43,419 nt of DNA from Fidelibacterota bacterium (GTDB lineage Bacteria > Fidelibacterota > UBA2242). Positions within the stretch are counted from its first letter, which is position 1, and every line of letters starts with the position of its first letter. A program made the position numbers and the translations under genes. The DNA lies in assembly GCA_028719225.1 (NCBI GenBank), contig JAQUKI010000001.1:1-43419 (forward strand), in the 5' to 3' direction. Below the pieces are notes generated by a model. That model made no database searches. It saw nothing but the letters and a program-made list of their open reading frames with translations, and had not been told where the DNA came from. Shown here one piece after another: positions 7,502 through 36,700 of the stretch.

Positions 7502-7530
7502 AGTGTAAAGTTTTTTTTAATGATTTGCAA
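7502..7530 (-). promoter_or_regulatory. Candidate sigma70-type promoter for the GntR gene.
   Basis: The reverse strand reads TTGCAA, a 17-nt spacer, then TACACT. Pattern match only. Confidence 0.3.
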
Positions 7531-7596
7531 GAAATATTTCCGCGTCAGGACAAAAGGATTAGCGGCAGGTTATTTCCGAAGCGTATGTTTTCGTTT

Positions 7597-8676: not shown

Positions 8677-8804
8677 TCTATCTTTTCCAAATCATTGATT
8701 ACAACAGTACAAACCATAACAAAACATTTTTTAATAAATCATATGTAATGACAATATAGAGCAACATTTGAATAAAATGAAGATGTTTTTCGTCGTCATG
8801 ACTA

Positions 8805-8833
8805 TTTACAGATAGATGAATAAACGGTAAGTT
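8805..8833 (+). promoter_or_regulatory. Candidate sigma70-type promoter for the 8858 operon.
   Basis: TTTACA, a 17-nt spacer, then TAAGTT, about 25 nt upstream of the AAGGAG Shine-Dalgarno site and ATG. Pattern match only. Confidence 0.35.
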
Positions 8834-8857
8834 TGTGTTGTTTATTAAGGAGAAGAA

Positions 8858-11139: not shown

Positions 11140-11154
11140 GTTTGACCGGCTTTT

Positions 11155-12177: not shown

Positions 12178-12202
12178 AATATTCTCCTTTTTCACTAATA
12201 TA

Positions 12203-12231
12203 AAAATAGCGACGACGGGCGCTCCTTCCAA
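12203..12231 (-). promoter_or_regulatory. Candidate sigma70-type promoter for the Fe-S protein gene.
   Basis: The reverse strand reads TTGGAA, a 17-nt spacer, then TATTTT. It lies inside the rejected N-terminal extension of the ORF, which supports the 12177 start. Confidence 0.35.
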
Positions 12232-12310
12232 TATTAAATTCCGAAATCGGACGATATGAAAGATAAGCGGGAAATGAGAGAGATAAATGACCGAATCGAT
12301 TTTGTCTTCC

Positions 12311-12339
12311 TTGTCAAAGCGCCTTTTGGAAACTAAATT
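12311..12339 (+). promoter_or_regulatory. Candidate sigma70-type promoter for the ABC-2 operon.
   Basis: TTGTCA, a 17-nt spacer, then TAAATT, 29 nt upstream of the TTG start at 12368. Confidence 0.4.
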
Positions 12340-12367
12340 CTCCTAAGTTTGAAAGTTAAGAATTGAG

Positions 12368-13276: not shown

Positions 13277-14118
13277 CGCTGTTACTGAAAGCGACATGGT
13301 ACGAAATCATCAAGATTGCCAGCAAATGGCGAACGTATATCGGTTTCATCACGATCGCGATTTTAGTGCCGGTTATCATGTTTTTGGTACGGAAATACGG
13401 ATTCGGCGTTCAGGATAACGCACTGAATTCAATGAAAGATTCTTTCATGTTCGTCGGTTCGCTTGTGAACGGACTGATCGTCTCCTATTTTCTAATGAAC
13501 GTACTCTGGGTACATTTCCCGTTTTTCATCGTTTTAGTAGCCGGCGATGTCGTTTCGAGCGAAGGCGCGGCAGGAACATTTCGCATCTGGCTGACACGTC
13601 CAATCTCGCGGTTTCAGGTGATCACCGCCAAGTTTATCGCGACGTTCGTTTATACCGCCGCGATCGTGTTGTTCCTTGGACTTTTGAGCGTCGGGCTCGG
13701 CATGTTGATTGTCGGCGGCGGCGATCTTTTCGTTTTTGATAAGGGAATTTTGATCCTGAGCCAAGGCGAAGCATTGTATCGTTTTCTCATCGCCTATCTG
13801 TTGGCCGTCTGGGTGCAAATGACTGTCGCGTCACTCTGCTTTTTATTTTCATCGTTAACCAGCAACTCCGTCGGACCGATCATCGGAACATACGCAACAC
13901 TGGTCGTTATGTTTATTTTGTCAGTGCTGAAAATCGATGCCTTAAAAGTAATTCATCCGTACCTCTTCACCTCTTATTTCGACGTTTTTTTCGCGCCTTT
14001 CAGCGATCCGATCCCATGGCGGGAGATCGCAGGCGACGTCGGCAAATTAGGAATTTTCATCCTCGTTTTCTATCTCGCAAGCGCGATCAGTTTCATCCGG
14101 AAGGAGATTACGACATGA
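13273..14118 (+). CDS. ABC-2 family permease.
   Basis: About six hydrophobic spans. ATGA overlap with the ATPase gene. Confidence 0.75.
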   Translation: MTLLLKATWYEIIKIASKWRTYIGFITIAILVPVIMFLVRKYGFGVQDNALNSMKDSFMFVGSLVNGLIVSYFLMNVLWVHFPFFIVLVAGDVVSSEGAAGTFRIWLTRPISRFQVITAKFIATFVYTAAIVLFLGLLSVGLGMLIVGGGDLFVFDKGILILSQGEALYRFLIAYLLAVWVQMTVASLCFLFSSLTSNSVGPIIGTYATLVVMFILSVLKIDALKVIHPYLFTSYFDVFFAPFSDPIPWREIAGDVGKLGIFILVFYLASAISFIRKEITT

Positions 14119-14983: not shown

Positions 14984-15499
14984 ATGACGCAGGTGGAATT
15001 AACACTTCTGGGAATCGTGGCAGAAGGTGAAAATCATGCTTACAACATTGAAAAGATCGTCGAGCAACGTGGATTACGGGAACGGCTGAGCATCGGGTTT
15101 TCAACTATTTACGCCGCGCTCAAGAAACTACAAAAAGAATATTTGGTAGAGAGCCGGTATGATGCTCAGCAAAATCTTCCCGGCAAACGCATATTTTCCC
15201 TCACACCTCTTGGCAAACGGACTTTTACTCAGGAAATGATGAAGGCGCTTTCGGTTCCACAACGTACAGAGTCCGCTTTTGAGGCCGCGCTTTGTTTTGC
15301 CCACCTTCTCAGCCGCGCGGAATTGAAGGAATCACTCTTGCTATATGACGCCGAATTGAGCCGACAGATTCAGATCAAGGTTCGCGAACTTACCGACTGC
15401 AACCTGAACGAAACCGTCAAACGCGGATTATTGACCCGCCCGCTGACGCTGATTCAGGCAGAACGCAAATGGATTCGCGAATTCATGGGTTTGTTATAA
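14984..15499 (+). CDS. PadR-family transcriptional regulator.
   Basis: wHTH region LLGIVAEGENHAYNIEKIV...STIYAALKKLQKEYLVES with a helical C-terminal extension. Confidence 0.8.
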   Translation: MTQVELTLLGIVAEGENHAYNIEKIVEQRGLRERLSIGFSTIYAALKKLQKEYLVESRYDAQQNLPGKRIFSLTPLGKRTFTQEMMKALSVPQRTESAFEAALCFAHLLSRAELKESLLLYDAELSRQIQIKVRELTDCNLNETVKRGLLTRPLTLIQAERKWIREFMGLL

Positions 15500-15521
15500 A
15501 CGAACATCAACGGAGTTTTCT

Positions 15522-15806
15522 ATGAACGAATGGATTCAATACCTGTCATCCAACCCGCTTGCCGCGGCGGCGCTGATCGCCGTTCTGATGCTTTTCATCG
15601 TAATGGTTCTGTCCAAACTGATCAAATGGGCGGTCATTTCGTTTTTAATTCTGGCGCTGGCGCTGGGATTGACATATAAAAATGCCCAGAAACCAAAGAT
15701 GGTGAAGCAGATCGAAAAACAAGCCGAGAAAATCATCAAAAAGAGCCAGAAAAAATCGGAAAAAAGCCTCGATGCATTGAAGGAAAAACTGCCCAAAAGC
15801 AAATGA
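15522..15806 (+). CDS. Small membrane protein with two predicted TM helices and a Lys-rich tail.
   Basis: GGAG Shine-Dalgarno site. Two hydrophobic helices, then KKSQKKSEKSLDALKEKLPKSK. Sits directly after padR, as PadR-associated membrane proteins often do. Confidence 0.5.
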   Translation: MNEWIQYLSSNPLAAAALIAVLMLFIVMVLSKLIKWAVISFLILALALGLTYKNAQKPKMVKQIEKQAEKIIKKSQKKSEKSLDALKEKLPKSK

Positions 15807-15859
15807 CGATCGGCTCGATCGTCTTCGTATTTTGATAACAAATTTTATATGGAGAATTT

Positions 15860-17242
15860 ATGTCGAATTATGTCCCCGAACCATTTCGTATTAAAGTCAT
15901 TGAAAAAATATCCAAAACAACACCGGAAGAACGTGAAGAACTGCTGAAAAAGGCTGGCTACAATTTATTTGCCATTCCATCTGAAAAAGTTTATATCGAC
16001 CTGCTGACCGACAGCGGCACCGGCGCAATGAGCGACAATCAATGGGCGGGAATCCAGACCGGTGACGAAGCGTATGCTTACTGCCGGAATTGGTTTCACT
16101 TCGAAGAAACTATTCGCAACCTGACAGGATTGAAATTTGTCATTCCCACCCATCAAGGCCGGGTCGCTGAAAATCTTCTCTTTTCCGCAGTCGTTTCCAA
16201 AGGGAAAGTCGTTTTAAGCAACAGCCATTTCGACACGACGCGCGCCAATGTTCTGGCGAATCAGGGTATCCCGCTGGATCTGGTAATCGACGAGGGAAAA
16301 ATTCCCGACTTCATTCATCCGTTCAAGGGCAACATCGATCTGCAAAAATTAGAAAAAACCATCCGGCATTACGGTAAAGAAAATATCCCGTTGGTCATTC
16401 TGACGATTACCAATAATTCCGGCGGCGGCCAGCCTGTTTCCATGCAAAATATCCGCGAGACAAAAGCGCTACTCAAATCATATGACATTCCGCTTTTTCT
16501 CGATGCGTGCCGTTTTGCCGAAAACGCTTATTTCATTAAAATACGTGAAGCGGGCTATCAGCAGAAAACCATCGATGAGATCGTTCACGAAATGTTTTCA
16601 TACGCTGACGGCGTTACGATGAGCGCCAAAAAGGACGGACTGGTAAATATCGGCGGCTTTCTCGCATTGAACGACGAGGCGCTTGCCGACCGTATCAAAG
16701 AGCATTTGATCCTCATCGAAGGTTTCCTGACCTATGGCGGTTTGGCGGGACGCGATCTCGAAGCCATCGCCCGCGGATTGAAAGAAGTGCTGGACGAGGA
16801 TTATCTTGAGTATCGCGTCGGACAGGTAAAATTTCTCGGCGACATGCTGGAAGCGAGCGGCGTTCCGTTCATCAAACCGACCGGAGGTCATGCAGTTTAT
16901 ATCGATGCACGCCAATTCCTGCCGCACATTCCACAGAGCCAATTTCCGGGACAATCGCTCGTCGCCAATTTGTATCGCCGTGCGGGAATTCGCGCCACAG
17001 AAATCGGCAGTTACATGTTTGCGCACGAAGATTCCAGCACCGGTGAAATGGTTTATCCCGATCTCGATCTCGTTCGGCTGGCAATTCCGCGCCGCGTTTA
17101 CACGGAATCGCATCTTCGGTATGTCGCCGAATCGATCATCAAATTGTACCACGACAGAGACAGTCTGAAAGGAATGAAGATCGTCGCCAAAGGCGAGTCA
17201 AGCCTCCGGCATTTCGTTGCGCGTTTAGTCTTTATCGAATGA
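15860..17242 (+). CDS. tnaA: Tryptophanase (beta-eliminating lyase family; tryptophan indole-lyase).
   Basis: Aligns along its full length with my recollection of E. coli TnaA and C. freundii TPL (EPFRIKVIE, DLLTDSGTGAMS, IPTHQGR, PLP-Lys motif SAKKDG). The specificity positions are tryptophanase-like: HFDTT (Asp, 16232-16234) and LRHF (His, 17210-17212). Confidence 0.85.
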   Translation: MSNYVPEPFRIKVIEKISKTTPEEREELLKKAGYNLFAIPSEKVYIDLLTDSGTGAMSDNQWAGIQTGDEAYAYCRNWFHFEETIRNLTGLKFVIPTHQGRVAENLLFSAVVSKGKVVLSNSHFDTTRANVLANQGIPLDLVIDEGKIPDFIHPFKGNIDLQKLEKTIRHYGKENIPLVILTITNNSGGGQPVSMQNIRETKALLKSYDIPLFLDACRFAENAYFIKIREAGYQQKTIDEIVHEMFSYADGVTMSAKKDGLVNIGGFLALNDEALADRIKEHLILIEGFLTYGGLAGRDLEAIARGLKEVLDEDYLEYRVGQVKFLGDMLEASGVPFIKPTGGHAVYIDARQFLPHIPQSQFPGQSLVANLYRRAGIRATEIGSYMFAHEDSSTGEMVYPDLDLVRLAIPRRVYTESHLRYVAESIIKLYHDRDSLKGMKIVAKGESSLRHFVARLVFIE

Positions 17243-17266
17243 AATTTGTTTTGAGAAGGAAAATGT

Positions 17267-19773
17267 ATGAAAAAAATATTAACGTATTTTACAGGAATTA
17301 TTTTGTTGTCGGCAATTACTACAGCCGCTGATCTGTCCGTCATACCGACACCACAAAGCGTCCATTTCCAGCCGGAATCGTTCGGTTTTACCGAACTCAA
17401 TTCGGTTCAGATCGTTTTGGGCGATAGCATCACAGCGGATGACGAAGGCGTTAAAATTCTCCGCGAAGCCATCGTCAATTCATTCGGAATTCAAACAAAC
17501 GTTGTCCAGACCGGTGATAACTCCGCGCTGGCATCTATTAACCTCGTTATCGCTTCATCTGATACCGGCGCAAACAAAATATCCGCTTATGAATTTACGC
17601 CGGAAATGACGGAAGAGGGCTATTTTCTCGACATTTTGCCGAACAAGATCACCATCGCGGCAAAGAATCCGACCGGTTTGTTCTATGGAATGATGACGCT
17701 GACACAGATGATCCGCTCCGCCGAAAAAGGAAAAATTCCCTGCGTTCTCATCAAAGATTTTCCGTCGATGAAATGGCGCGGCGTCTCGGATGATTTCAGC
17801 CGCGGGCAAGTTTCAACGATGGACAATTTCAAGCAAATTATCCGCTTTCTGGCCGAAGACAAGATCAACGTGTTCATTCCGTACATGGAAGACGTCATTC
17901 AGCTGGAAAAATATCCGGACATCGGCGTCGGGCGCGGCGCACTTTCCAAAGATGAAATCCGCGAGATTAGGCGTATGCCAAACGACTTCACGTCCAGATC
18001 GTTCCGGTGTTTCAGACGCTCGGCCATTTTGAAAATATTCTCACGATGCCGAACTACGAAAAATTCGCCGAATATCCCGGCGCGGGTTCGCTGAATTCAA
18101 CAAATCCCGAATCGGATAAATTTCTGTTCGATCTGCTCGACGAGGTGATTCCACTGTTTGAATCGGAATATTTCCACATCGGAGCCGACGAATCGTGGGA
18201 TGTCGGTCTGGGCGCTAATCGCGATCTGGTGGCAAAAGACGGCATTTCAAAAATCCACGCACGGCATTATCAAAAAGTGTACGACAAGGTAAAATCCTAC
18301 GGGAAAAACGTGATGATGTACGGCGACATTATCCTGCATCATCCCGACATCCTCAATCAAATTCCAAAAGACATTATCATCGTCGATTGGCACTATTCGG
18401 CGACCGATAATTATCCATCGGTCAAACAATTCGCCGACTCCGGATTTCAGGTCATCGTTTCGCCGGGAATTCAAAATTGGCTGAATGTGATCCCGAATTA
18501 CGACGCCGCGTGGATCAACATTTCCAACATTAATCTCGAAGGCTACAAGATGAAGGCGCTCGGTTCCATCAACTCGACGTGGGGCGATTACGGCGGGCCG
18601 AATTTTCGGGAATGGAATTATCTCGGTTATGCCTATGGCGCGGAGTCTTCGTGGAATACGCCGGGCATGAATGGAGAAACGATTAACCAACGGTTTTTTA
18701 AACAGTTTTTCGGATGCGAGGATTCCCGGCTGTCATCGCTTCTAATTCATTTGAACGAAATCCCGAACCTGACAAATTACAAGGAAATCTTTCGCCAGCC
18801 GTTTTTCCAAACGGATGAATCCGCCGGAAAAATCCTGCTCCGTAGCCGCCAACTCATAGAAAACGGGAACGCCGCGTTGGTACTGATTGATGAACTCCGT
18901 CGGATCGTTAAAACGAATGTCTATTATCTCGATTACTATGAATTCGCCGCAAAAATGAGCGTTTTTATGGGCGATCGCCTGAAATTCACGCGCGACATCA
19001 GCCGGATCGGCATGCTCAAATTGGAATCGACGTTAACCGAGGATGAATGGAATCTTCTTCAGCAAAATTGCTCGGCGCTGATCGAAGGCCTGAACGATCT
19101 GGAGCATTCGTTCAAATCGCTCTGGCTGAGGACGAACCGGCCGGACAATCTTTCACGCGTGCTCAACCTGTTCCGCGTTCAGATGGCCTACCTTGAATCG
19201 GCGCAGGAAAATCTGGCCGCGCATTCGGTTCAGATTCCGACGACGCTCTCCTCAAAATTTATCACCGCAAAACAGAATCCCGATTCCGAAAAGCCTGCGC
19301 CGGCGTTTCTCCGGAAAACATTCGAACTCGAGCGGCTTCACGGTTTAAAAAGCGCCAACCTGCAAATGATTGCCAATTCAGAGGCGAATATTTCCATCAA
19401 CGGTAAATCCGTCGGTCGGATCACGGCGACGAAATCGCTTTCGCTGCTCGTCGAAAATCAGCGCATCGGCTGGTGGGACGTGCTTGACAAATTAGAAAAA
19501 GGAAAGAACATCATCACCGTTGCAGTTCAAGGTTACAAGCCGAAAATGCCTTCGACGGCCAATGTCTATCTCGAACTCCAGTTTGAGGATGGCCAAACGA
19601 TGATCATTCAATCCGACGGGACGTGGGAATCCGCGACGCAAGTCAAAGACGGCTGGCAACTGGCACGCGATTCCGGCGGAAAGTGGAACAATGCTCTGAT
19701 TTTCGATAAATATCCGTGGCGGATTTCCGCTCCGATGTTCGGGAAAGGATTTGCCTCGCAGATCGAGTTTTAA
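17267..19773 (+). pseudogene. GH20 beta-N-acetylhexosaminidase with a C-terminal galactose-binding-like domain, interrupted by a 1-nt frameshift near 17969.
   Basis: ORFs 17267-18094 and 18007-19773 are two halves of one gene. The first has a signal peptide plus IPTPQSV and FPSMKWRG. The second frame reads AYAKRLHVQIVPVFQTLGHFE...HIGADE (GH20 catalytic pair). Only 2 nt (17969-17970) lie between EI(17963-17968) and AYAK(17971-). Confidence 0.7.
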
Positions 19774-19795
19774 ATCGGAAAAAATACGGGATAAT

Positions 19796-19825
19796 AAAAA
19801 GGGCGGGATTTTACCCGCCCTTTTT
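19796..19825. terminator. Bidirectional rho-independent terminator between convergent genes.
   Basis: AAAAA-GGGCGGG-atttta-CCCGCCC-TTTTT: a 7-bp GC stem and 6-nt loop, with an A-tract and a T-tract on either side. Confidence 0.75.
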
Positions 19826-19844
19826 ACATATATACAGAAACGGA

Positions 19845-22553
19845 TTATTTGACCATCGTCATCCGTTTGACTTTTGTAACATTGCCGTTTTTCACAGCAT
19901 ACAAATAAACACCTGTGGACATTGCCGAACCATTCCGATCTAAACCATTCCACGTAATCGTATAAGTTCCGGTTGACAATTTCTTGTTGACCAGCGTAAC
20001 AACTTCTTTTCCCAGCAAGTCGTAAATCGTCAACGTAACAACCTTTTCGCTTGGAACGTCAAAAACGATGTTCGTCGTGGCGTTGAACGGATTCGGATAA
20101 TTCTGTTGCAAACGGAAGTTATCCAAACTGGTGATATGATTCGAACCGGGATCAATTGCCGATCCGGCACTCTGATTTGTATAACGGGCAACATTTCCCT
20201 GATATGTAAAGAAATAACCAAAATCGTTATCCGCGACTACAGCGCCTAGGAAATCATTACCAGACAATGCAGAGGCAACGGGAACCGGTGTCCATGAATC
20301 ACCCAGATTATCCGTGTAGAAAACTTCGCCATAATCACAAAATGCCATAATCCGACTGGTGCCGGGAACAGCAACAACCGCGTTGACCCAACCATCAGCG
20401 GAAACCGGTGAACTGACAAGGTCCCAGGTTTCGCCGCCGTCTGTAGTAACAAATGGAACGCCATCGATTGAGCTATCGTCGCCGCCATTGATACCGACAG
20501 CCATACCATCAGAATCGCTCGTGAAAGTTATTCCACGGATTACTTTTGCACAACCGGTCGGGACCTCAAAACTTTCCCAATTAACACCGGCATCATACGA
20601 CCGATAAACATAGGCTGTGTCTGAAGAAGATGTTGTGCCGGTAAACCAAACCGACTCGCCATTATTCCAGACAGCGGTGCCCCATGAATAGATCGCCTGA
20701 GACGCTGACATATAATCAACACCGGTTATTTCAGTCCAGGTTGCGCCCTTATCTATAGACCGTGCGAAATAGAGATCGCCATTAGCCGCGCCGTCACCCA
20801 AAGCAACTGCAACACTGTCATTCAGAACCCTGATTCCATCGAACCAGCCGGCGCCACTGAAGACCGGATCGGCCAGATAGGTGTGTACAAGAGTCCAATC
20901 CTGGCCGCCGTTTGTTGTTCTATAGATTTCACCAACAGCAGTAGCAACAACAGCGATATTGGCATCGAAGGCATCTACCTGTGCCGCACGCCCGGGAATA
21001 GCCGTAGTATTGTGTGTAAACGTTTTGCCACCATCAGTGGAACGGAAAACATAGGTCACTTTGTTGGTACCGTCCACGCCGCAAAACCAGATGACATTGC
21101 CATTATTCAGAGCGCGACCCGGTTTGAACAATATACCGCTGGGAGCCGCTCCGTTGAATAATACTTCGGGAGCTACGATCAGACTATCTGCACCACTCGA
21201 AGTAACCGTAGCATCGAGAATTACGATTGGTGCGGATCCCTCAGCCGTGAAAACATCCGGAGCGTATGAAGTACTGGATGTATATAAAACTTCTGCCTCG
21301 GGATCGTCATCGATATTGGCAATATTCAGAACCGACCAAACACCGGTTGCTTCCGTCGCCGAATAGAGCGAATCGATCAGCATCAGTTCATAATTCGCCG
21401 GATTTGTAATGTCACCGCCTTTATAAGAAACGCAGGTGATCAAACCGTTCGGAGTTGCATCGCGTGAACCAAATATGAAATCGAGATAGCCGTCGCCATC
21501 AATATCGCCACTTGCACCACCCCATGGGCCGCGCGCTCCTGTCGGCCAATATGCCGAGAGATTAAACAACTCTGTCGCTTTTAATGTATCGGCAACTTCC
21601 TGTAGGAGATAAACTCCCTTTTTCGTATCATCGCCCCAATCATAAACGGCGCAAACGATTTCTTTCGTACCGTCTTTGTCCAAATCGACACCCTTTGCAG
21701 ATTGAACCGGCGCGCCACCGGCCAAAGGACTTAGCGCGGTGTAACTCCATCCGCTATTAAAAGATAATTTCGAGATTTCTGTCTCCGAGAAAAAATAGGC
21801 GTTGTTTCCAGTGACGGCAACATCCCATTTATTTTGAACCGTGGAGGTCATACTCCAATCTTTTCCGCTGGCTTCCAGCGTCCAGGTTTCCGAACCATCT
21901 GCATTATCCGGAATATTGCTTACAGAACAAACCCCGACATAATAACCACCGTTGTTACCTGCCCGATCGGCGAAAATTACCTCGGTCGTTCCATCTCCGT
22001 CAATATCAACCGCTTCAGCGTCGATTGGACGGATATTGATACTTTGTTCAGTGGTAATTGTCCATGTCGAGTTCGGCTTATAGCCGCCGGCGCCGTCATC
22101 GACCCCAAGGATATCACCGGTTCCCTGTTCATAAACCGCAATCCGAACGGGGTTGGTGGAAACGGAAAAAGCATTAACCGGCATCCAGGTTATTTCTTCT
22201 TTCTGATCGTTATCCAGATCTGTCAGTAGAAGCGCCGGCCACGTGTTCTGGTAAGCCGGATCGAGTTTGGCCTGCCATACTATATCCCAGTTCGCGCCAT
22301 TTTTTTCCAATTTGTAAATGCGCGGAATAACTTCGCTGGCACCGTCATTCCAATTATCATTTACCAGATAGATTTCGGTTTTTCCATCTTTGTCCAAATC
22401 GACACCGGAAATGATGCCCCCAATACCGCCATTGTTCAATGTGGCTTCGGGAATGTCGATCACACCACTGCGGGTGAAACCGGTTATCCCGGCGAAGCTG
22501 AAAGAAAACAGCGTCAGGACTAACACGCTAAAAATCGTAACAACTTTCTTCAT
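19845..22553 (-). CDS. T9SS cargo protein with FG-GAP/VCBS-like repeats, a BNR/Asp-box propeller and a type-A CTD (payload gene of cassette 2).
   Basis: AGGAGG Shine-Dalgarno site. About six DxDxDG repeats (VDIDGDGTTEV, GDIDGDGYLDF...). Six Asp-box repeats (STDGGKTFT, TTNGGQDWT, SIDKGATWT, SYDAGVNWE, TTDGGETWD, LGDSWT). Canonical CTD QNYPNPFNATTNIVF...LTIYDLLGKEV...STGVYLY. Confidence 0.8.
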   Translation of the reverse strand: MKKVVTIFSVLVLTLFSFSFAGITGFTRSGVIDIPEATLNNGGIGGIISGVDLDKDGKTEIYLVNDNWNDGASEVIPRIYKLEKNGANWDIVWQAKLDPAYQNTWPALLLTDLDNDQKEEITWMPVNAFSVSTNPVRIAVYEQGTGDILGVDDGAGGYKPNSTWTITTEQSINIRPIDAEAVDIDGDGTTEVIFADRAGNNGGYYVGVCSVSNIPDNADGSETWTLEASGKDWSMTSTVQNKWDVAVTGNNAYFFSETEISKLSFNSGWSYTALSPLAGGAPVQSAKGVDLDKDGTKEIVCAVYDWGDDTKKGVYLLQEVADTLKATELFNLSAYWPTGARGPWGGASGDIDGDGYLDFIFGSRDATPNGLITCVSYKGGDITNPANYELMLIDSLYSATEATGVWSVLNIANIDDDPEAEVLYTSSTSYAPDVFTAEGSAPIVILDATVTSSGADSLIVAPEVLFNGAAPSGILFKPGRALNNGNVIWFCGVDGTNKVTYVFRSTDGGKTFTHNTTAIPGRAAQVDAFDANIAVVATAVGEIYRTTNGGQDWTLVHTYLADPVFSGAGWFDGIRVLNDSVAVALGDGAANGDLYFARSIDKGATWTEITGVDYMSASQAIYSWGTAVWNNGESVWFTGTTSSSDTAYVYRSYDAGVNWESFEVPTGCAKVIRGITFTSDSDGMAVGINGGDDSSIDGVPFVTTDGGETWDLVSSPVSADGWVNAVVAVPGTSRIMAFCDYGEVFYTDNLGDSWTPVPVASALSGNDFLGAVVADNDFGYFFTYQGNVARYTNQSAGSAIDPGSNHITSLDNFRLQQNYPNPFNATTNIVFDVPSEKVVTLTIYDLLGKEVVTLVNKKLSTGTYTITWNGLDRNGSAMSTGVYLYAVKNGNVTKVKRMTMVK

Positions 22554-22599
22554 GAAAACCTCCTAGTTTTGTTATTCGTGATCCTTATACATTTGTCAT

Positions 22600-23613
22600 T
22601 CAAAAAGAAACTCCGAGAGATACTCGGTGAGCGCCTTTTAGTGCGCCCAGATCGGAGTAAGCATAATCTGCGTTAATTCCCAAAGCATTTCCCAACCCAA
22701 GCCGAACTCCGGCGCCAAATGTCAAACCGGCTTCATCCGTATTAATTTTGTAACCGCCGCGCAGGCTGAACATCTTCAGAAACGAATATTCGAGACCAAG
22801 ATTATATTGCTCGAGATTATTGTTCGGATGAATCATGTCCGCCGCGACCATGACTGTATGGTTAGTTTTTTCAAGCAGGTTCATACTGATTCCAAAGCGG
22901 AAATTCACCGGCAGGGAGTAGGTTTCATATTTTTTTTCTTTATTAGCGTTCTCAGAATCACTGTAATCCCAGTAAGTACCACTGAACCGAACTTCCGGAG
23001 CGAAGTGCAGAATTGACATACCGAGTCTCAATCCATGAAAATTGGTTCGGTAAACCGTACCCAAATCCATCGCCCATGTCGAATAACCATGACCATAGTA
23101 ATCTTCATGTACTAGCTTGGTGGTCAAACCAACCGAAACGCGATCAGTCAGAAAACGGGCGTAGGTCAAACCGATAGCATAATTGGTCAGGTTGAACATT
23201 TCGCCATTGCCTTCCGGCGTTTCGATTGTGGTAACCTCCATGTCATCCGTCATCAGGTAGACGCCGCTGATAGCGAGGGTTCCAATTCGTCCAAGTTTCA
23301 TCGAATAAGCGAGACCGGCGAATGTAATGTCGGCCGGCCACTTATTATAAGAGCTGAACAAATTGCGATCATTGGCATCTACTAATCCGGCAGGATTCCA
23401 GAAGACAGCGCTGGCATCGTTCGCGACAACGGTAAAGGCTTCGCCCATGCCAGCCGCGCGGGCGCCAACGCCGATTTCCAGAAATTGGGCTACCGATGTG
23501 CCAACCGGAGCAAATTCTGCGGCAAAACTAACCGGCAAAATCAACAGGATGATTATCAGGGATACAGGAAGTATATTTTTGCGCATTGTTCTATTTTCCT
23601 CTCTGATTAGCAT
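22600..23613 (-). CDS. PorV/PorQ-family-like outer-membrane beta-barrel protein (cassette 2).
   Basis: Motifs LEIGVGARAAGMGEAFT and FWNPAGL, with a terminal Phe (LGVSF). The start may instead be ATG 23586 (MRKNILPV...SFA|A). Paralog of 519-1463. Confidence 0.7.
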   Translation of the reverse strand: MLIREENRTMRKNILPVSLIIILLILPVSFAAEFAPVGTSVAQFLEIGVGARAAGMGEAFTVVANDASAVFWNPAGLVDANDRNLFSSYNKWPADITFAGLAYSMKLGRIGTLAISGVYLMTDDMEVTTIETPEGNGEMFNLTNYAIGLTYARFLTDRVSVGLTTKLVHEDYYGHGYSTWAMDLGTVYRTNFHGLRLGMSILHFAPEVRFSGTYWDYSDSENANKEKKYETYSLPVNFRFGISMNLLEKTNHTVMVAADMIHPNNNLEQYNLGLEYSFLKMFSLRGGYKINTDEAGLTFGAGVRLGLGNALGINADYAYSDLGALKGAHRVSLGVSF

Positions 23614-23614
23614 G

Positions 23615-25636
23615 TTAACGAACGATCACAAATTTGCCGATTATCTCGCCTAAAGTAGGCGATTTGACCACATACATGTAAATCCCCGGCGCGGCTTCCT
23701 GATTATTACGGGTCATCAGATCCCACTCGGCCACACTGGCCGCATTCGGGCTAACTTCCTCGCCGACAACTACGGTGCTGTTGGCTTTCGTTTCTGCCAC
23801 ATAATCTCCGTCGAGTGTAAAGATCTGAATCGTTGCATCGGCGGGCAGATTTGTAAATTGCAGACGATGTTCCCATGCAAATGAATCGCTCGGCGTGCGG
23901 TTATTCCAGCTGGCACTTCCCAAATAAGGATTCGGCACAACCTTGACGTTTTTAAGCGTTTGAGTTGCAACCGGATTGGCGGGTGAAATGATATTGGCAT
24001 TTTTTCCAGTATAGATTACCCCAATCGGCTCCGGGATTTCTTCTGTGAAAGCCTGAACGGCGTAATAGTAAACCAATCCCTTGATAATATCTTCATCTAT
24101 GTAACAATATTTTCCATCGTCATCAACGGGCGGTGGCCAGGTAGCGCTTCCGACCGTATCGGTATATGTTGCCAGCGTAGTCCACTCAACCGAGCCGCTA
24201 CTGGATTTTTGTCCTTTTGAAAGCACATAACCTTGAAATTTTGGATGTGTTGTTGAGTTAGCATCCCATTTGACGAAGACACCTTTGGTTACATTATCTT
24301 CGACTTTTTGTTGTAATTCCACGACAGGCGTAGAGGGTGGTTCAAGAGCGGCAATATCGTAGTCGACATCAACAATAAATTGGGCAATTTTCATACTCTT
24401 GACAAGCTTCACCAAACTGTAAACACCGCCACTGTCAAAATCACAACCAATACCCAAAGCGGTCGTGACCACAACCGAATCACCGGGTGGCAATGAATCC
24501 AGCGGCCCGAATGTAAGAATTCCGCGGAAATCATAAGCATACGGCAGGCCGGTGGTAGGATTGGAAAAAATATCTTCAAAAATCGGACTGCTAATCATTC
24601 GCGACCAGGTTAGTGCATCTGAAGTCGGATCGTTATAAATCTGGCAAACGTGAAACGAACTCGGTTTCAACTCTGGAACGCTCTTTAGTACTTTAATACC
24701 AATAAAGCCTGGCGTTTGCAGTTTTCCATCGGCACTCATGTTGCCGAAATCATTTGCCTGACCATTTTCCGCCGTATAACTGGGATTATCACCATCGAAC
24801 ATGATGATCATATGGCTGTCGGCATCGGCGGATGTCAGACCATGGTCACGTCCTGCCATCCGACTTTTATTGTCGTTCGGGTCTGCCGGATCAGCGAACT
24901 TTTCGATCCAGTCCCACTGACTGTTCGACATGGCATGGTCATCGATATTACAATATTTCGACTCGGCATCCCATTGCGGTAATTTGGACACATCACCGTC
25001 AAAGCGGATCGTAAAGTAAAAATCCTTTAAACCCCGCGGAGTGTCGGGCAGCCCATCGCCGTTGGTATCGATTCCAACATTCTTAATCGTATACTCATAA
25101 ATGATGAAATCCGCCGCATAACTGGCGGACCAGGCGTATGTACGTTCCTGAACTTCCAGCCCGAGCGGAAAATGGGTTCCCGAAGCCAACGGCGCCGTTA
25201 CATCGTAATATTTTGTGTAGGTATCTTCTTCGGATCGAGCATTTGTGCTGGTATCGACATGCACTGAGTCCAGAGCAGAAAATTCATGATCGTCGCCTTG
25301 CGTGGAGTGAAAAGTTCCGTCCACAAAAGCCGACAACCAGAGCGTTCCGCGATAAAGGTAAGAATTCCCGGAGCCGCCCGGATAATCGCCGGAAGGTGTG
25401 CGATTGGTATAGGAATCATCACCCATGTAACTGTAATTAGAGCAACGGTTCCAGATATTGCCGATTTTATGCCACTTGTAGTTATCATCTACAATCGGGC
25501 TTTGTGCTGAAAGAGAAATTTTCGACAATCTGGTCGGTTTCTTGGCTTGATCTGCGGCTATCGCAAAGTTAAAAATGAACAGACCGATCAATAAAATCTT
25601 GATAATGTTTTTCATCTTTTTTAAATATTGATTCAT
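23615..25636 (-). CDS. Uncharacterised secreted protein with an FN3-like module and a divergent T9SS CTD (cassette 2).
   Basis: GGAGG Shine-Dalgarno site and a signal peptide. Shares YPGG, ...RTYAWS.../...RTSKAWS..., an FN3-like block (VFVKWD...GYVLSKG...YYYAVQA) and the CTD-like end (VVPNPY...TIQIFTLDGDYV...APGIYMYVV...FVIVR) with 1474-3348. Confidence 0.7.
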   Translation of the reverse strand: MNQYLKKMKNIIKILLIGLFIFNFAIAADQAKKPTRLSKISLSAQSPIVDDNYKWHKIGNIWNRCSNYSYMGDDSYTNRTPSGDYPGGSGNSYLYRGTLWLSAFVDGTFHSTQGDDHEFSALDSVHVDTSTNARSEEDTYTKYYDVTAPLASGTHFPLGLEVQERTYAWSASYAADFIIYEYTIKNVGIDTNGDGLPDTPRGLKDFYFTIRFDGDVSKLPQWDAESKYCNIDDHAMSNSQWDWIEKFADPADPNDNKSRMAGRDHGLTSADADSHMIIMFDGDNPSYTAENGQANDFGNMSADGKLQTPGFIGIKVLKSVPELKPSSFHVCQIYNDPTSDALTWSRMISSPIFEDIFSNPTTGLPYAYDFRGILTFGPLDSLPPGDSVVVTTALGIGCDFDSGGVYSLVKLVKSMKIAQFIVDVDYDIAALEPPSTPVVELQQKVEDNVTKGVFVKWDANSTTHPKFQGYVLSKGQKSSSGSVEWTTLATYTDTVGSATWPPPVDDDGKYCYIDEDIIKGLVYYYAVQAFTEEIPEPIGVIYTGKNANIISPANPVATQTLKNVKVVPNPYLGSASWNNRTPSDSFAWEHRLQFTNLPADATIQIFTLDGDYVAETKANSTVVVGEEVSPNAASVAEWDLMTRNNQEAAPGIYMYVVKSPTLGEIIGKFVIVR

Positions 25637-25666
25637 TAAAAAACCTCCATATTACTCATGGGAGCG

Positions 25667-28483
25667 TTAGAATTGCACTTCGACGCCAAAGCGATACTGC
25701 CGCCGATCACTATATGCCTGGGGATTATAAACCAAACCGCCGCCAACCAACGTCTCATCGAGAACAATTGTAGGATCGCCGGTCTGGCCATAATACATGG
25801 AACTGCCGATCCAATCGACATTCAGGCGGTTGAATAGGTTGAACACATCCAGAAAAACGTTCACGTCGGCCCCAGCCACGGCAACCTGTTTGCTCAATCT
25901 TAAATCAGTATTGAATGTCGCGGGTAGACGCTTATCATTGACTTTTCCGGTACCATACGAGGAATAGGGCAAACCGCTGCCATATTTAAATTGGAAATTG
26001 GCGTGCCAGTTGGTGAATGGTTTATAATTATAGAAGCGCAAACCAAAAATCTCGTCTTTCGGCGTGCATAATGTCAGATTTGCATTAAGCGTATGTGTCT
26101 GGTCAAAACTCAGATAATTCAACCGCCTGGAGTCGCTAAAAGCGCCGGCTCCACTACTCGAAGTCGAACTGCGTCCTTTAGCAACTGAAAAAGTATAGTT
26201 CAGTGATCCACCCCAGAATTTCCCGATCCGCTTGGTCAAAGCAAATTCCAAGCCTTTCATGTTGCCATAATCGGCATTTCCATAAACATTGATTTCAATC
26301 CCTTGAAGGTTCTCCCCAATATATTTGTACCAGTTCATCAAGTTGGTCACGTCTTTATAATAACCTGTGATCGATCCCTTGATGTCATCGCTAAAAAGAT
26401 GTTCAACACCAATTTCGTAGGCTACCGTCTTTTCGGGATCGATATTAGGATTGCCGACATAATTGCCAACTTTAGTCAATGCCTGAAAGTACATGTTGCG
26501 GTAGAGATAATAGGCATCCGGACGCTGAAAATAGTGACCGTAAGAGAAATGAATGACATCGCGCTCGGTTATCGGATGCGAGATCGCAATGCGGGGGCTG
26601 AACTGTGATTTAGCGCTAGGCTTTTTTGGATTGATTAGAATCGGTAGTCCACTTGTATCCAATTCGGAATAGGGATTGTTATAATCAGCCGGATAGTTCA
26701 CACCATCACCACCTCCGTTCGGATCAAAATAATCGAAACGCAAACCAATGAGGGCGATAATTCCCTGAAACTCTATCTTATCCTGAGCATAAAGCCCAAA
26801 GTCTATAGTATTTTTATCCCAGATGTCTTCCCGGAAGGTGCCATAACCCAGTGTCCAACTAATGTTTTCGACAGACATCCGACTATAATCGAATTCAAAT
26901 CCGGCTTTGATTAAATGATTGTAGGTTGCCTGGCTGACAAAATCACCTTTAATCGTATTAGTCCACGATTTCTGATCGCGATAACCCGGATCGTCACCAA
27001 CGATCCACCAGTAATTATTCTCCTGATCGCGATAAATCGGATGCGGGCCATCTTTTGTGTCGTCCCAAACCAAATCCTCTTCTGTATTATTATCACCATC
27101 TCGATCATCTACGTCCTGCGTGGCATAATGGTAATTGGAATAGTAGGATTGCCAGCGTAGTTCATAGTAAGTGCGAGAACTAAGCGACTGCGTCCAGACC
27201 AAATATAGGTTGCGGCTGTTCTGGTGATAATTCCAGAGATAGTCCTGCATCGATCCGACATAATACGTTTTAGTAAAATGAGTCGTATCACCTTCCTGTA
27301 ATACCAGAGTATCAATTGTTGATTGTCCATTCTGCGACCAATATTTCTGCGGATCATTGACATAAATGTAGTGCAAGGCTGTGTCACTACCGGTGCTTTG
27401 CTCGCACCAGTATTCATTTGCCTGGTAATCCTCACCCGGACCGTACTTTGATGCTGGTAAGTAAAATTCGTCCCAGTCTTTTTTCGAATAGAGTCCGCCA
27501 ATTGATAATTTGGTTTTGGAAGTCGGTTTGATGGTCACCTTTCCTTGGTAAGATTGATTATTGTATTGCTCGTTAATAAAATTGCCCTGATTGCGATCGG
27601 TGATTTCTGCCGATGCCGAGAAATTGGCTTTCTTTGTGAAGAGCGGCCCATTTAGGCTGAATTGATAATTGTTTTCTAATTTATGCAGATAAGTGACGCC
27701 CAGCCAATCACCACGCTCACCCATCAACAGGTCATTCAGGCCAGATCCGAAATTTGTCGACATAAAACGTGCTTTACCGGATAATTTTTGGCTGCCTTCC
27801 TTTAATGCCAGGTTTAATACACCGGATTGAACATTGCCGTATTCAGCGCTGAACCCTCCTAACGTGACTTCCATTTCCTGAATTGCGGCTTCGGGAACGT
27901 CGGCCGTGAATCCTCCCATATTGCCGGAATATTCGCCAGCAGGGTCTTTCACGGGCAAACCGTCAATCACGACCAAAACCTCGCCAACACGTCCACCACG
28001 AAAATGGCTGCCGACCGTGCCCGCCTGGTTTTGTGCAATTTGTTGAAAATTATCGATCGGCTGACCCGTCATTTCTTCGGCGGTAACCGTATGTCGGGAA
28101 GTAAACTCATCTTTTCGCATTAAAGGGCGCTCCGCCGTAACGATCACGCTTTCTCCAGCCTCTAAAACGGTAGATTGCATGGAAAAATCTTGTTTTGTAG
28201 TCAGATCTATCGACACCACAACATTCTTAGTTATCACAGGAGTATAGCCGATCATCATGGCCTTTAAATCATACGTACCCACCGGGACGTTCAATATCGT
28301 ATAAAATCCCTCATTGTCGCTGGCAACACCCATCGTAGTACCTTCGAGAACGATATTAACACCGGGCAGCGGTTTTCCTGATGCGGCATCTTTAACAATA
28401 CCGGTGATTTTCCCACTGGTACCGGCGAAAACGCCCATTGCCATGGTCAAAGTTAGACTGACAAGTAACAGATATCTTCGCAT
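25667..28483 (-). CDS. TonB-dependent-receptor-like outer-membrane barrel with N-terminal CarboxypepD_reg domain (cassette 2).
   Basis: AGGAGG Shine-Dalgarno site and a signal peptide. GKITGIVKDAASGKPLPGVNIVLEGTTMGVASDNEGFYTILNVPVGTYDL. TonB-box-like ESVIVTA, a plug region, a long barrel, and a terminal Phe (VEVQF). Confidence 0.85.
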   Translation of the reverse strand: MRRYLLLVSLTLTMAMGVFAGTSGKITGIVKDAASGKPLPGVNIVLEGTTMGVASDNEGFYTILNVPVGTYDLKAMMIGYTPVITKNVVVSIDLTTKQDFSMQSTVLEAGESVIVTAERPLMRKDEFTSRHTVTAEEMTGQPIDNFQQIAQNQAGTVGSHFRGGRVGEVLVVIDGLPVKDPAGEYSGNMGGFTADVPEAAIQEMEVTLGGFSAEYGNVQSGVLNLALKEGSQKLSGKARFMSTNFGSGLNDLLMGERGDWLGVTYLHKLENNYQFSLNGPLFTKKANFSASAEITDRNQGNFINEQYNNQSYQGKVTIKPTSKTKLSIGGLYSKKDWDEFYLPASKYGPGEDYQANEYWCEQSTGSDTALHYIYVNDPQKYWSQNGQSTIDTLVLQEGDTTHFTKTYYVGSMQDYLWNYHQNSRNLYLVWTQSLSSRTYYELRWQSYYSNYHYATQDVDDRDGDNNTEEDLVWDDTKDGPHPIYRDQENNYWWIVGDDPGYRDQKSWTNTIKGDFVSQATYNHLIKAGFEFDYSRMSVENISWTLGYGTFREDIWDKNTIDFGLYAQDKIEFQGIIALIGLRFDYFDPNGGGDGVNYPADYNNPYSELDTSGLPILINPKKPSAKSQFSPRIAISHPITERDVIHFSYGHYFQRPDAYYLYRNMYFQALTKVGNYVGNPNIDPEKTVAYEIGVEHLFSDDIKGSITGYYKDVTNLMNWYKYIGENLQGIEINVYGNADYGNMKGLEFALTKRIGKFWGGSLNYTFSVAKGRSSTSSSGAGAFSDSRRLNYLSFDQTHTLNANLTLCTPKDEIFGLRFYNYKPFTNWHANFQFKYGSGLPYSSYGTGKVNDKRLPATFNTDLRLSKQVAVAGADVNVFLDVFNLFNRLNVDWIGSSMYYGQTGDPTIVLDETLVGGGLVYNPQAYSDRRQYRFGVEVQF

Positions 28484-33788: not shown

Positions 33789-36700
33789 TTGTGCTTTCTT
33801 TTACTGGTCGGATTAAGCCGGATCGACGCTCAGGTCGCATCCGAAGATCCGGCACAGGATAATTTTTATATTAAAGTCGATTGGTTGGCAAAACATTTTG
33901 CCGGTATGCGGATCGATGAAAAACGTGGTTTGTCGTTTATCTCGCCTAATTACGTTTCGCTTAACGCCAATATCCTGACAGTCCAATTCGCGTCGGCAAA
34001 AATGGAGCAAAAGCCCGATTTGTCCGGCACTAATCTCCTGTTCACCAATCAAATGAGCGGAACGGACATTTTTCTCCCGCGTGGCATTTCGTTCGATGAC
34101 TATTACCAGATGAAAACGAAGACCGCTTTGCGCAAACAACTAAATGAATTGATCGCCAAAAGCGCTGAGGAAGAAAAAAAGACGCCCGCAACCGAAAAGA
34201 TAGAACTGATCGGCGCCGACATCGCCGGACAACGCGTATCGCTTCAGGTCTCGGGAAATGTCAATATCAACGGCAAGTTGCAAAACCAAAAACGATCTCA
34301 GGTACGCTCCGGTTATCAGGAAGGTCAGTCCACGACGTTCATCATCGATCAGAAACAGCAGTTGAGCATCGAAGGTAAAATCGGCGACCGAATTAGCATT
34401 CTTGTCGATCAGGACAGCGAACGCGACTTTGACTTTGAAAATGCGTTAAAAATCGTCTATACGGGACATGAAGACGACATCGTTCAAAAGGTCGAAGCCG
34501 GAAACGTCGCGCTGTCTCTGCCGGGGACCCAGTTTGTCACTTTTTCCGGCAAAAACAACGGACTGTTCGGGCTCAAGGCGCTGATGAAACTCGGCCCGGT
34601 TGACGTAACCACGATCGCATCGGTCGAAAAAGGTAAAAAGGAAAAACTCAGCGTGGACGGCGGCGCCCAAACATCGACCGGATACATCAAAGACTACGAT
34701 TACCGTAAAAACCAGTACTTTTTCCTCGATATGACTTACCGGGATTCTTTGTATACCGATTTTCAAACAACCGGAATACTTAATTTAACTAATCGCATTG
34801 TATCCGATCTTGAAGTTTACAAGTCCGTCACGACGGAAACCGCCGGATGCGTTTACGGCACTGCGTGGGTGAATCCCAACGATGAATCACAGAATGCGGA
34901 TCAAAAAGAAGAACATCTGTTCAAGCGCCTCGACCTGAGTAAAGATTATGTGGTTGATCTAAATTTAGGAATCCTTCGAGTATCGACACAACTTCAGGAA
35001 TCAGAGGTGCTTGCAGTTGCCTATCGCATAACAAATACTGCAGGAACGACCATTGAAGAGTACGGACAATGGGATCGCGCTGCCACTGATACGAATGACA
35101 TCAAATTGAAGATCATCAAACCGCAACAACTTTTACCATCGCATCCGTGCTGGAATCTGGAATTTAAAAATGTTTATTTCCTTGGAACGACCGGTATCAA
35201 CGAAGATGGTTTCGACCTGAACATCGTCTATAACTGGGGCAAGAACGGGGACATCGACCGCGATGAAACCGACGGTAAAACTTTCCTTGAAAAATTCGGT
35301 CTCGATCGTAAAGACAAGAGCGGAAATGCCACGCCCGATAATATTATCGACTTGGATAACAAATCTATTATCAATCTGCAAACGGGCGAACTCTGGTTTC
35401 CTTTCCTTCGCCCGTTCCAGTACAAGCAAAATGACCTGACAGGCGAACACAATCCGAATTTAGATTCGGCAAATTACAACTGTTCGGCAATGTACGACAG
35501 CAACCGGACAAACGCTTCGGCCATTAACGAGGACACGAAATTCAAGATCAAGTACAGTTATGAGAACCGAAGTTCGAATATCAGTCTCGGCGCAATGGTC
35601 ATCGAAAACAGCGAGTCGGTGACACTTAACGGGCAGACGCTGACGCGCGGCGTCGATTACACAATCGATTATTTCTCCGGAAGTCTTACGCTTCTTAAGG
35701 CCGAAGCCACAAATCCGGACGCCAAGCTGGACATCAAGTACGAAAAGAATCAATTCTTCCAGTTAGACAAGAAAACGATCCTCGGCGCGCGCGCGCAATA
35801 CGATTTCGGCGAAAACTCCTATATCGGCGGTACCGCGCTCTATTTCAGCCAGTCGGTAGTCGATGAAAAAGTGGATATCGGTTACGAACCAATGCGGAAT
35901 TTCGTTTGGGATTTGAATACGAAATTAAGCAAGAACCTGAATTTCCTCACACGCGCGGTCGATTGGCTGCCGCTGGTTCAGACCAATGAAACATCGAACA
36001 TTTCCTTTGAAGGTGAAATCGCGCAGGTGCGACCGAATCCCAACACATTGAGCAATGAATCGACCGACGATCCCGACGGCGTCGGATTCATCGACGATTT
36101 TGAAGGCAGCAAACGCATCACTTCGCCGCCGATTATGCGCCAATACTGGTCGCTTTCGGCAGCCCCGGTCGGCAAAACACAGAACCAGCGCGGCTTTGCT
36201 TTCTGGTTCAATCCTTATGGCGGTGTCGCGACGACGAGTATCTGGCCGAATAAAGAGGTCAGTACTCGCGCACAGAATAATCTAACGGAAGTTCTCGGAA
36301 TCGCCATGAATCCGAAATGGTCGATTCGTGTTGGTGACGGGCTCGAACCGGCTGAAAATGCATGGGGCGGCATCACCTATTATTTCCCCACAAGCTATTA
36401 CGACCAATCCAAGACCAAATATGTCGAGATTTGGGTCCGAGGAAAAACCGGGCAGTTGCATCTCGATCTCGGATATATCAGCGAAGATCAGGACGGCAAC
36501 GGAGCGTTGGACACAGAAGACAAACCGGAGCTCACCTATACCGGAAACGGTCTTCTGGATAATGGCGAAGATATCGGTCTTGACGGCGTCAAGGACGAAT
36601 ATGAAGAAATCGAAGATTCGTTCGGTGATATCATCCCGTATGGAGATTCTCGGCTCACGAAATACGCGCGCGAAACCGACGATCCGCATTCGGACAACTG

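Follow-up and report, generated by a model that had tools for sequence, protein, structure and literature searches.

Polymer harvesting by Bacteroidota is explained in textbooks by SusCD uptake, a process that relies on surface lipoproteins. In BtuB-BtuG, HmuR-HmuY and TbpA-TbpB, a surface binding protein likewise feeds an adjacently encoded TonB-dependent barrel, and these partners are acyl-anchored lipoproteins. In SprB-SprF, the gene of a type IX secretion system (T9SS) substrate with a type-B C-terminal domain (CTD) is followed by the gene of its own small PorP/SprF-like barrel, which is thought to anchor or handle the substrate. In Porphyromonas gingivalis, PorZ and PorU keep their CTDs uncleaved and are held on PorQ and PorV, respectively, and cognate PorV-like barrels have been proposed to shield CTDs from cleavage (PMC10202324). 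It has also been documented that BamG, a 14-stranded FadL-like barrel, has extracellular loops that bind the surface-exposed BamH and is itself packed against a larger barrel (PMC12578637). Here, we analysed the 43,419-nt contig JAQUKI010000001.1 from a metagenome-assembled genome of Fidelibacterota (Marinimicrobia). The whole contig is the window to which all coordinates refer unless another locus is named. It carries a cassette in which a TonB-dependent receptor (TBDR), a secreted protein of an unnamed family (X) and a PorV/PorQ-family barrel are encoded together. We propose, with a probability of roughly 0.6, that this cassette is an outer-membrane nutrient-uptake module that resembles SusC/SusD in role and differs from it in build.

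The cassette lies at 19845-28483 on the minus strand and consists of four co-directional genes with intergenic gaps of 30, 1 and 46 nt in open reading frame (ORF) coordinates, as described in an earlier reading of the same DNA (hereafter the original prediction). Because a paralogous set of genes (copy 1) lies elsewhere in the window, we number the proteins of this cassette as copy 2. Its features are as follows.

25667-28483, minus strand: TBDR2, a TonB-dependent receptor of 938 aa with signal peptide, N-terminal extension, plug and barrel (Pfam and NCBIfam matches).
23615-25636, minus strand: X2, a secreted protein of 673 aa from an unnamed family whose homologues are called 'hypothetical'.
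24437-25504, minus strand: N-terminal beta-supersandwich domain of X2 (about residues 45-400), putatively ligand-binding (domain model and Foldseek).
23957-24334, minus strand: fibronectin type III (FN3)-like domain of X2 (about residues 435-560; Foldseek matches to FN3 domains of gp130, NCAM and Dscam).
23618-23953, minus strand: CTD of X2 (about residues 562-673), T9SS-CTD-like and PorZ-like, proposed to be a retained anchor (conservation and PorZ model matches).
22600-23613, minus strand: PorVL2, a PorV/PorQ-family outer-membrane barrel of 337 aa, possibly 328 aa from Met10 (NF033709).
19845-22553, minus strand: cassette gene 4, an FG-GAP and BNR/Sortilin-type propeller protein of 902 aa with a type-A T9SS CTD (Pfam and TIGR04183).

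We assessed the TBDR against family models. TBDR2 matched CarbopepD_reg_2 (PF13715, 61 bits), Plug (PF07715, 30.2 bits; gathering score 23.9 bits) and the TonB_dep_Rec barrel (PF00593, 83.8 bits; gathering score 27 bits), which bears out the predicted order of carboxypeptidase-regulatory-like domain, plug and barrel. Between its N-terminal domain and plug lies ESVIVTA, at the position that the TonB box occupies in SusC-like proteins; the corresponding stretch of TBDR1 in copy 1 is EEVVVVA, and both are candidate TonB boxes by motif resemblance only. The original prediction had described a SusC-style TonB box, but membership of the receptor in the SusC family was not borne out. The SusC/RagA model TIGR04056 gave 68.5 bits for TBDR2 and 72.2 bits for TBDR1 against a cut-off of 368.25, and the match was limited to the N-terminal extension and the start of the plug in TBDR2 and to residues 33-470 in TBDR1 (profile positions 2-365 of 981). 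Judged by these profile scores, TBDR2 is not a member of the SusC family.

The third gene encodes a barrel whose family assignment is firm and whose subfamily is less so. PorVL2 scored 222.8 bits on the PorV/PorQ family model NF033709 (cut-off 90), PorVL1 of copy 1 scored 169.1 bits, and the partner barrels at other loci scored 166-227 bits. The predicted PorV/PorQ-like nature of the 337-aa protein was thus upheld, and assignment of the small barrels to FadL or other porins, which had been raised as an alternative, was not borne out. On the equivalog models, PorVL2 reached 90.1 bits for PorQ (NF033711, cut-off 220) and 73.8 bits for PorV (NF033710, cut-off 250), while PorVL1 reached 60.8 and 57.2 bits, respectively, both also below the cut-offs. 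The partner barrels score higher on the PorQ model than on the PorV model. The sole match of PorVL2 among PDB sequences was PorV (6h3i_F).

Protein X2 gave no match in the Pfam scan, and the X profile matched PDB sequences at chance level only (E 0.3). Database names in the family are nearly all 'hypothetical protein'; the one exception is an X1 orthologue, which carries the NCBI name T9SS type A sorting domain-containing protein. X2 has a signal peptide of the signal peptidase I (SPI) type with cleavage between AIA and AD, and no lipobox. In its AlphaFold2 model (mean predicted local distance difference test score, pLDDT, 84), an all-beta N-domain (about residues 50-400) is followed by a long helix (404-423), the FN3-like domain (439-550) and a C-terminal beta-sandwich (565-671). 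The N-domain contains many invariant Asp, Asn and Trp residues and, modelled alone, reached a pLDDT of 88 and a predicted template modelling score of 0.91. Foldseek matched it to the N-terminal beta-supersandwich of GH94 phosphorylases and GH116 glucosidases and also to the P1 domain of YidC (E 1e-6 to 1e-4), with no SusD, SusE/F or other transporter partner among the matches. Since the supersandwich is an accessory domain in the matched carbohydrate-active enzymes, X may bind a ligand. The family is large: the X profile found 4131 clusters at 50% identity with E<=1e-3 and 1830 with E<=1e-10, although many of these match only through the C-terminal ~170 residues and carry larger N-terminal parts that mostly lack a Pfam match.

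These results agree with the description of the 673-aa protein as a member of an unnamed family with an FN3-like module and a T9SS-CTD-like end. A known SusD or SusE/F analogue had been considered for X2 as well; this candidate is ruled out by the all-beta fold and the N-domain of the GH94/GH116/YidC P1 type, and the protein has no Pfam or PDB sequence match. No SusD was found among the genes called with Pfam matches in the window locus or in the homologous loci examined, consistent with the claim of a cassette without a SusD-like gene.

We then compared the CTD of X with that of the neighbouring gene 4 product. Among 16 genomes, the CTD is the best-conserved region of X (72% mean pairwise identity against 62% for the whole protein), whereas the type-A CTD of gene 4 is the least-conserved region of its protein (49% against 57%) in the same genomes. 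The X C-terminus shows overall CTD motifs (PNP...). With at least 23 bits at the extreme C-terminus as the criterion for TIGR04183, X1 scored 18.3 bits, the distant X-like protein in locus L088 scored 24.6 bits, and X2 gave no match at E<=0.01. These scores mark the X C-terminus as related to the type-A CTD but divergent. The NCBIfam PorZ model matched 25 of 54 X2 orthologues and TIGR04183 only one (E 0.0084). Where coordinates were listed, the PorZ matches of X-family proteins fall within the PorZ C-terminal region, and those of the distant X-like proteins cover PorZ positions 666-757 of 757. Within the CTD of X2, a conserved insertion or loop (571-588) has invariant G573, S574, W577, N579, P582 and W588 and a pLDDT below 50 in the monomer model, which suggests a partner-dependent interface, as the loop looks the way such an interface would be expected to look.

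By analogy with PorZ, X may therefore be retained at the surface via its CTD on the PorQ-like barrel. The original prediction had likened the barrel to the PorV shuttle. Because the barrels are closer to PorQ and the X CTD is PorZ-like, the retained PorZ-PorQ anchor is the better analogy, and the shuttle comparison was replaced.

To place the cassette in other genomes, we sampled one genome per species and obtained 77 loci with a gene for an X2 relative, which belong to Marinimicrobia, KSB1, Calditrichota and Fermentibacteria; the counts below use loci with enough flank. The gene directly before X encodes a TBDR in 63 of 65 loci, and the gene directly after X encodes a PorV-like barrel in 62 of 62. 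No flanking gene outside the cassette is common to more than nine loci, indicating that the unit is a self-contained cassette. At least six phylum-level groups preserve this order, at identities that fall to 37-40% and even lower in Fermentibacteria, but the flanks are not conserved. Synteny of the trio is far above chance, as the original prediction had anticipated, and it recurs in paralogous families and in further phyla.

The same order was found around distant X-like genes in Ignavibacteria, Cloacimonadota and Delongbacteria. Five distant X-family members were looked up; four bear the X-type C-terminal module, and all four have a TBDR upstream. In two loci of Cloacimonadota, L086 (1006-3323, plus strand) and L089 (5589-7982, plus strand), exbB-exbD-exbD-tonB lies between the TBDR and the X-like gene, and a PorV/PorQ-family barrel follows the X-like gene. 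Locus L088 has the order TBDR, X-like, barrel. The fifth member, in locus L087, combines an X-type N-domain with an ordinary type-A CTD and has neither a TBDR nor a barrel as neighbour; this single exception points in the direction expected of an anchor. The flanks of L048 and L031 contain a second pair of X-like and barrel genes and a second pair of TBDR and X-like genes. As a separate observation, a second TBDR of ~1080 aa, divergently oriented, adjoins the cassette in Calditrichota (L001 at 1-5757, minus strand, and L042, L047, L048, L049 and L059). In L001 it is followed by proteins of 312 aa and >533 aa that gave no NCBIfam match and may be another kind of TBDR partner set.

The window itself contains a second trio in the same gene order, TBDR, X and PorV-like barrel, at 519-6592 (copy 1). 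Its features are as follows.

3362-6592, minus strand: TBDR1, a paralogous TonB-dependent receptor of 1076 aa (Pfam, BLASTP).
1474-3348, minus strand: X1, an X paralogue of 624 aa with a signal peptide and a PorZ/PorU/TIGR04183-like C-terminus (NCBIfam, BLASTP, profile).
519-1463, minus strand: PorVL1, a PorV/PorQ-family barrel of 314 aa from an internal Met (NF033709); the ORF reaches 1565.
1-456, minus strand: 5' part of the copy-1 fourth gene, cut by the contig end (67% identity to the product of L085:12799-14796).
6617-7444, minus strand: GntR/FCD regulator directly upstream of copy 1, its position kept in the orthologous locus L085.

The length of 314 aa for PorVL1 requires the internal Met at 1463 and agrees with orthologues of 313-314 aa. 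TBDR1 matched Plug with 40.9 bits and the barrel with 78.5 bits, both above the gathering scores. BLASTP aligned TBDR1 with TBDR2 at 37% identity in the N-terminus (E 5e-41) and 26% in the barrel (E 4e-27), and PorVL1 with PorVL2 at 31% (E 2e-54). The BLASTP alignment of X1 with X2 was confined to the C-terminal 270 residues (29% identity, E 3e-20). A profile built from X2 orthologues, however, matched X1 over positions 51-185 and 260-669 (76 bits), indicating that X1 and X2 are homologous across most of their length, and TBLASTN with X1 gave nearly full-length alignments to some X2 orthologues. The recurrence of three paralogous genes in order, claimed earlier, is therefore supported for each pair, and judging from these alignments the copy-1 trio is an old paralogue of copy 2. 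The partners of X1-type genes group with TBDR1 and PorVL1 (for example, 1143 against 182 bits and 349 against 175 bits), and the TBDR and barrel encoded at X2-type loci are much closer matches to copy 2 than to copy 1. This grouping by cassette type indicates that the trio duplicated and diverged as a unit.

X1 has orthologues in Ignavibacteriales (~52% identity) and in another Marinimicrobia genome (74% identity). Their loci encode a GntR regulator, an SBP_bac_1 protein, two ATP-binding cassette (ABC) permeases, TBDR, X1, a PorV/PorQ barrel, a GH38 enzyme and two CTD proteins, one DUF4961/DUF5005/DUF4185 and one DUF4961, in a gene order that differs between the two phyla. The GH38 protein has no CTD match on record. 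As these loci contain no SusC/SusD pair, they are only like a polysaccharide utilisation locus (PUL) and fall outside its strict definition. The glycan link of the system comes from this copy-1 context (GH38, DUF4185 and a sugar ABC importer), and judged from it, the copy-1 substrate is likely a mannose-rich glycan. The original prediction had instead drawn a glycan hint from the GH20 hexosaminidase and SGNH esterase genes beside copy 2. These genes are not conserved with the cassette, and the SGNH gene of the window flank is shared by the closest relative only, so the flanks say little on substrate and were rejected as indicators of it. The GH20 hexosaminidase is itself split between the overlapping ORFs 17267-18094 and 18007-19773 (plus strand) in different frames, covering a GH20b N-domain and a partial catalytic domain; either the gene is a pseudogene or the split reflects a frameshift or an assembly error.

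The fourth gene of copy 2 proved to be as predicted, with FG-GAP and BNR/Sortilin matches and a canonical type-A CTD (TIGR04183 45.9 bits, cut-off 23; PF18962 35.1 bits). An FG-GAP/CTD gene is the fourth gene in 43 of 55 copy-2-type loci, and in Calditrichia an M28 peptidase with a CTD replaces it. In L009, L019, L063-L072 and others, gene 4 is shorter (~570-650 aa) and keeps the FG-GAP half and the CTD without the BNR/Sortilin propeller. The copy-1 counterpart had been taken for a lipoprotein, in contrast to the CTD cargo of copy 2. This contrast is an artefact of the contig end: the 152-residue fragment carries a lipobox-like LLGLTNC, but it aligns at 67% identity with the N-terminus of a DUF4961/DUF5005/DUF4185 protein of 665 aa whose C-terminal end is a T9SS CTD, indicating that CTD cargo follows both cassette copies. 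Of the picture of a conserved three-gene core with a variable payload, the core stood up to the synteny analysis, while the fourth gene of copy-2 loci is mostly conserved.

Set beside the described systems, the cassette shares with SusC/SusD (RagA/RagB) a TBDR with a CarboxypepD_reg-like extension and a TonB-box-like motif, followed directly by the gene of a proposed surface partner. In the copy-1 family it also shares a regulator, glycoside hydrolases and an inner-membrane sugar importer within the locus, and the partner is proposed to do the same job, capturing substrate at the transporter. It differs in that both TBDRs fail the SusC model, that X is all-beta, lacks a lipobox and any similarity to SusD and carries a T9SS CTD, and that a third gene, the PorV/PorQ-family barrel, is obligatory. 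The same separates it from BtuB-BtuG, HmuR-HmuY and TbpA-TbpB: with an SPI signal peptide and a CTD, X would need a separate barrel.

The PorZ-PorQ and PorU-PorV pairs offer what is proposed here, a T9SS substrate that keeps its CTD on a PorV-family barrel (PMC10202324), and the resemblance to PorZ-PorQ extends to the CTD matches of X-family proteins and the PorQ scores of their barrels. Unlike these pairs, the barrels here stay below the equivalog cut-offs, and X has no PorZ or PorU body (the PorZ structure appeared only at rank 41 of the fold search, with a template modelling score, TM-score, of 0.13). X and its barrel are, moreover, encoded together, tied to a TBDR and present in several paralogous copies per genome. 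SprB-SprF shares the order of a T9SS substrate gene and its own small barrel gene, but the barrel here belongs to the PorV/PorQ family, with a single sub-threshold match to PF11751 (in L085), the X CTD is type-A/PorZ-like, and SprB-SprF has no TBDR. BamG-BamH differs in its function, which is outer-membrane protein assembly, and no CTD or TonB link is described there. A TBDR linked to both a PorV-family barrel and a CTD protein is not described in the full-text literature that we searched, in line with the novelty claimed at the outset, although most subscription papers were outside the coverage. The components are familiar; what is new is their combination, the X family and its distribution across phyla.

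From the gene content, family membership, conservation, synteny, PUL-like and tonB/exbBD contexts and X domain architecture that we observed, we infer a scheme of surface retention, barrel binding, receptor contact and substrate capture by X. The TBDR would act as a TonB-energised importer. X would use Sec to cross the inner membrane and the T9SS, through SprA, to cross the outer one. Its CTD would not be removed; the dedicated PorQ-like barrel encoded next to it would hold X at the surface, as PorQ holds PorZ. The beta-supersandwich domain would bind substrate and pass it to the TBDR. The downstream CTD proteins would be ordinary T9SS cargo that process or bind substrate: the FG-GAP/BNR propeller in copy 2, the M28 peptidase in Calditrichia and the DUF4185-type proteins in the copy-1 family. 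A stricter version, in which TBDR, X and PorQ-like barrel form a stable three-part complex and the T9SS-delivered, barrel-anchored X serves as a hinged lid or capture arm, is conceivable, and we put it forward tentatively. The secretion system that the scheme requires is available to the organism, since its translocon gene lies on the same contig, ~5 kb from the copy-2 cassette.

33789-40130, plus strand: T9SS translocon Sov/SprA, 2113 aa (TIGR04189 857 bits, cut-off 200).

Several results weigh against this nutrient-uptake scheme. X-family proteins resemble the PorZ CTD only weakly (the best E-value is 8e-6 for X2 orthologues, and one distant X-like protein reaches 1.5e-8), and because the PorU CTD is also matched by the ordinary gene 4 CTD, the subtype assignment of the X CTD is no more than suggestive. 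The TM-scores of the Foldseek matches to the X2 N-domain are modest (0.35-0.46), and ligand binding by this domain is a guess, as the fold is non-catalytic in its structural relatives. In locus L090 of Delongbacteria, the TBDR and X-like genes are followed by a gene for a 687-aa protein (11358-13421, plus strand) that gave no family match, in the position where the PorV/PorQ-family barrel would be expected. Copy-2 X orthologues are 50-60% identical across phyla, which is unusually high for a nutrient-binding protein, and copy-2 loci have no conserved regulator, carbohydrate-active enzyme or inner-membrane transporter nearby; this high conservation and bare neighbourhood would also fit a housekeeping role. 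A mirror-tree analysis of 49 triads gave correlations of 0.86-0.92 among all parts, the strongest partial correlation being that between the barrel and the TBDR barrel (0.41). As no unrelated control was included, these correlations are not evidence of contact.

The barrel could serve as a locus-specific shuttle instead. X would then be ordinary cargo whose CTD is cleaved and which is released or attached to lipopolysaccharide; the barrel would carry X and other CTD proteins from SprA, and the TBDR would merely import the products, with no stable complex of X, barrel and TBDR. The founding member of the barrel family, PorV, is a shuttle, further CTD cargo lies directly downstream in most cassettes, and the CTD motifs of X would suit such a route. 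We nevertheless regard it as unlikely: the X CTD is the best-conserved part of its protein, unlike the cleaved-type CTD of the neighbouring cargo, the barrels are nearer to PorQ than to PorV, and X CTDs match PorZ far more often than the generic CTD model. The pairing is also strict between barrel and X (62/62), whereas the downstream cargo varies. The relation of the barrels to FadL allows another view, in which the barrel passes a small or hydrophobic substrate in parallel to the TBDR, X is a secreted binding protein or enzyme, and adjacency reflects a shared substrate with no anchoring. PorV-family proteins are FadL homologues, and some partner barrels give faint Toluene_X (PF03349) matches. 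The strong NF033709 scores (166-227 bits, cut-off 90) make such a channel very unlikely, as does the fact that the barrel follows X-like genes with the special CTD and is missing in the one case with an ordinary CTD, L087.

A housekeeping function in the envelope, as an outer-membrane biogenesis machine or a T9SS accessory complex, would account for the mean identity of 55-62% of all four copy-2 proteins across phyla and for their lack of conserved metabolic or regulatory neighbours, and the beta-barrel assembly machinery sets a precedent in the FadL-like BamG that holds the surface protein BamH. Such a role is hard to reconcile with a TBDR that has a plug, a TonB-box-like motif and a standard barrel, with exbBD-tonB inside the operon of related cassettes, or with the PUL-like loci in which related cassettes accompany genes for glycoside hydrolases and sugar ABC importers, and we consider it highly improbable. 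Many of the 77 loci are orthologous, so the synteny is partly inherited, but that the genes are adjacent by chance or history alone, with no functional coupling, is scarcely credible given an order kept in at least six phylum-level groups whose flanks are not kept, and kept again in co-diverged paralogous cassettes.

If the nutrient-uptake scheme is right, it would define an uptake machine for the sister phyla of Bacteroidota in the Fibrobacterota-Chlorobiota-Bacteroidota (FCB) group. These phyla (among them Marinimicrobia/Fidelibacterota, Ignavibacteria, Calditrichota, KSB1 and Cloacimonadota) are abundant in oceans, sediments and digesters and mostly uncultured. The scheme would give a role to the large unannotated X family and to many unexplained PorV/PorQ paralogues, and would extend retained-CTD anchoring, as in PorZ-PorQ, from the secretion apparatus to nutrient acquisition. 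Metagenome annotation would improve, as PUL-like loci would become recognisable without SusD. Should the three-part complex also exist, at least six FCB phyla would require the T9SS in order to import nutrients by the TonB-dependent route. The complex would be a functional counterpart, possibly an evolutionary forerunner or alternative, of the lipoprotein-based SusCD, and the X family, with its more than 4000 clusters at 50% identity, would supply the ligand-specificity subunit.

The remainder of the window was surveyed as well. An Rfam scan of the whole window for a riboswitch that might name the substrate gave no match, and promoter and terminator scans performed no better than on shuffled sequence; the sigma-70 consensus does not cover FCB promoters. 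An M28 peptidase gene (40132-41052, plus strand) begins 1 nt after the SprA gene, and a 'choice-of-anchor X' domain match (NF041940, 28.6 bits) lies at 41906-42973 (plus strand). The region 7597-12231 encodes two URO-D/MtaA-like methyltransferase homologues, a CobW GTPase and an Fe-S protein with a twin-arginine translocation signal and reductive-dehalogenase/QueG-like matches, and may be a corrinoid-dependent system. A Beta_elim_lyase gene (tryptophanase/tyrosine phenol-lyase family) at 15860-17242 (plus strand) lies 2.6 kb from the cassette; a gene of the same family adjoins that of the L087 protein (3113-8480, plus strand), which may be coincidence. Finally, in the KSB1-type loci L002-L004 (L004 being KSB1), the cassette is closely followed, on the opposite strand, by a PorU-like gene of ~1600 aa with Peptidase_C25 and FlgD_ig domains (~15400-20000, minus strand), after which come three small unassigned genes.

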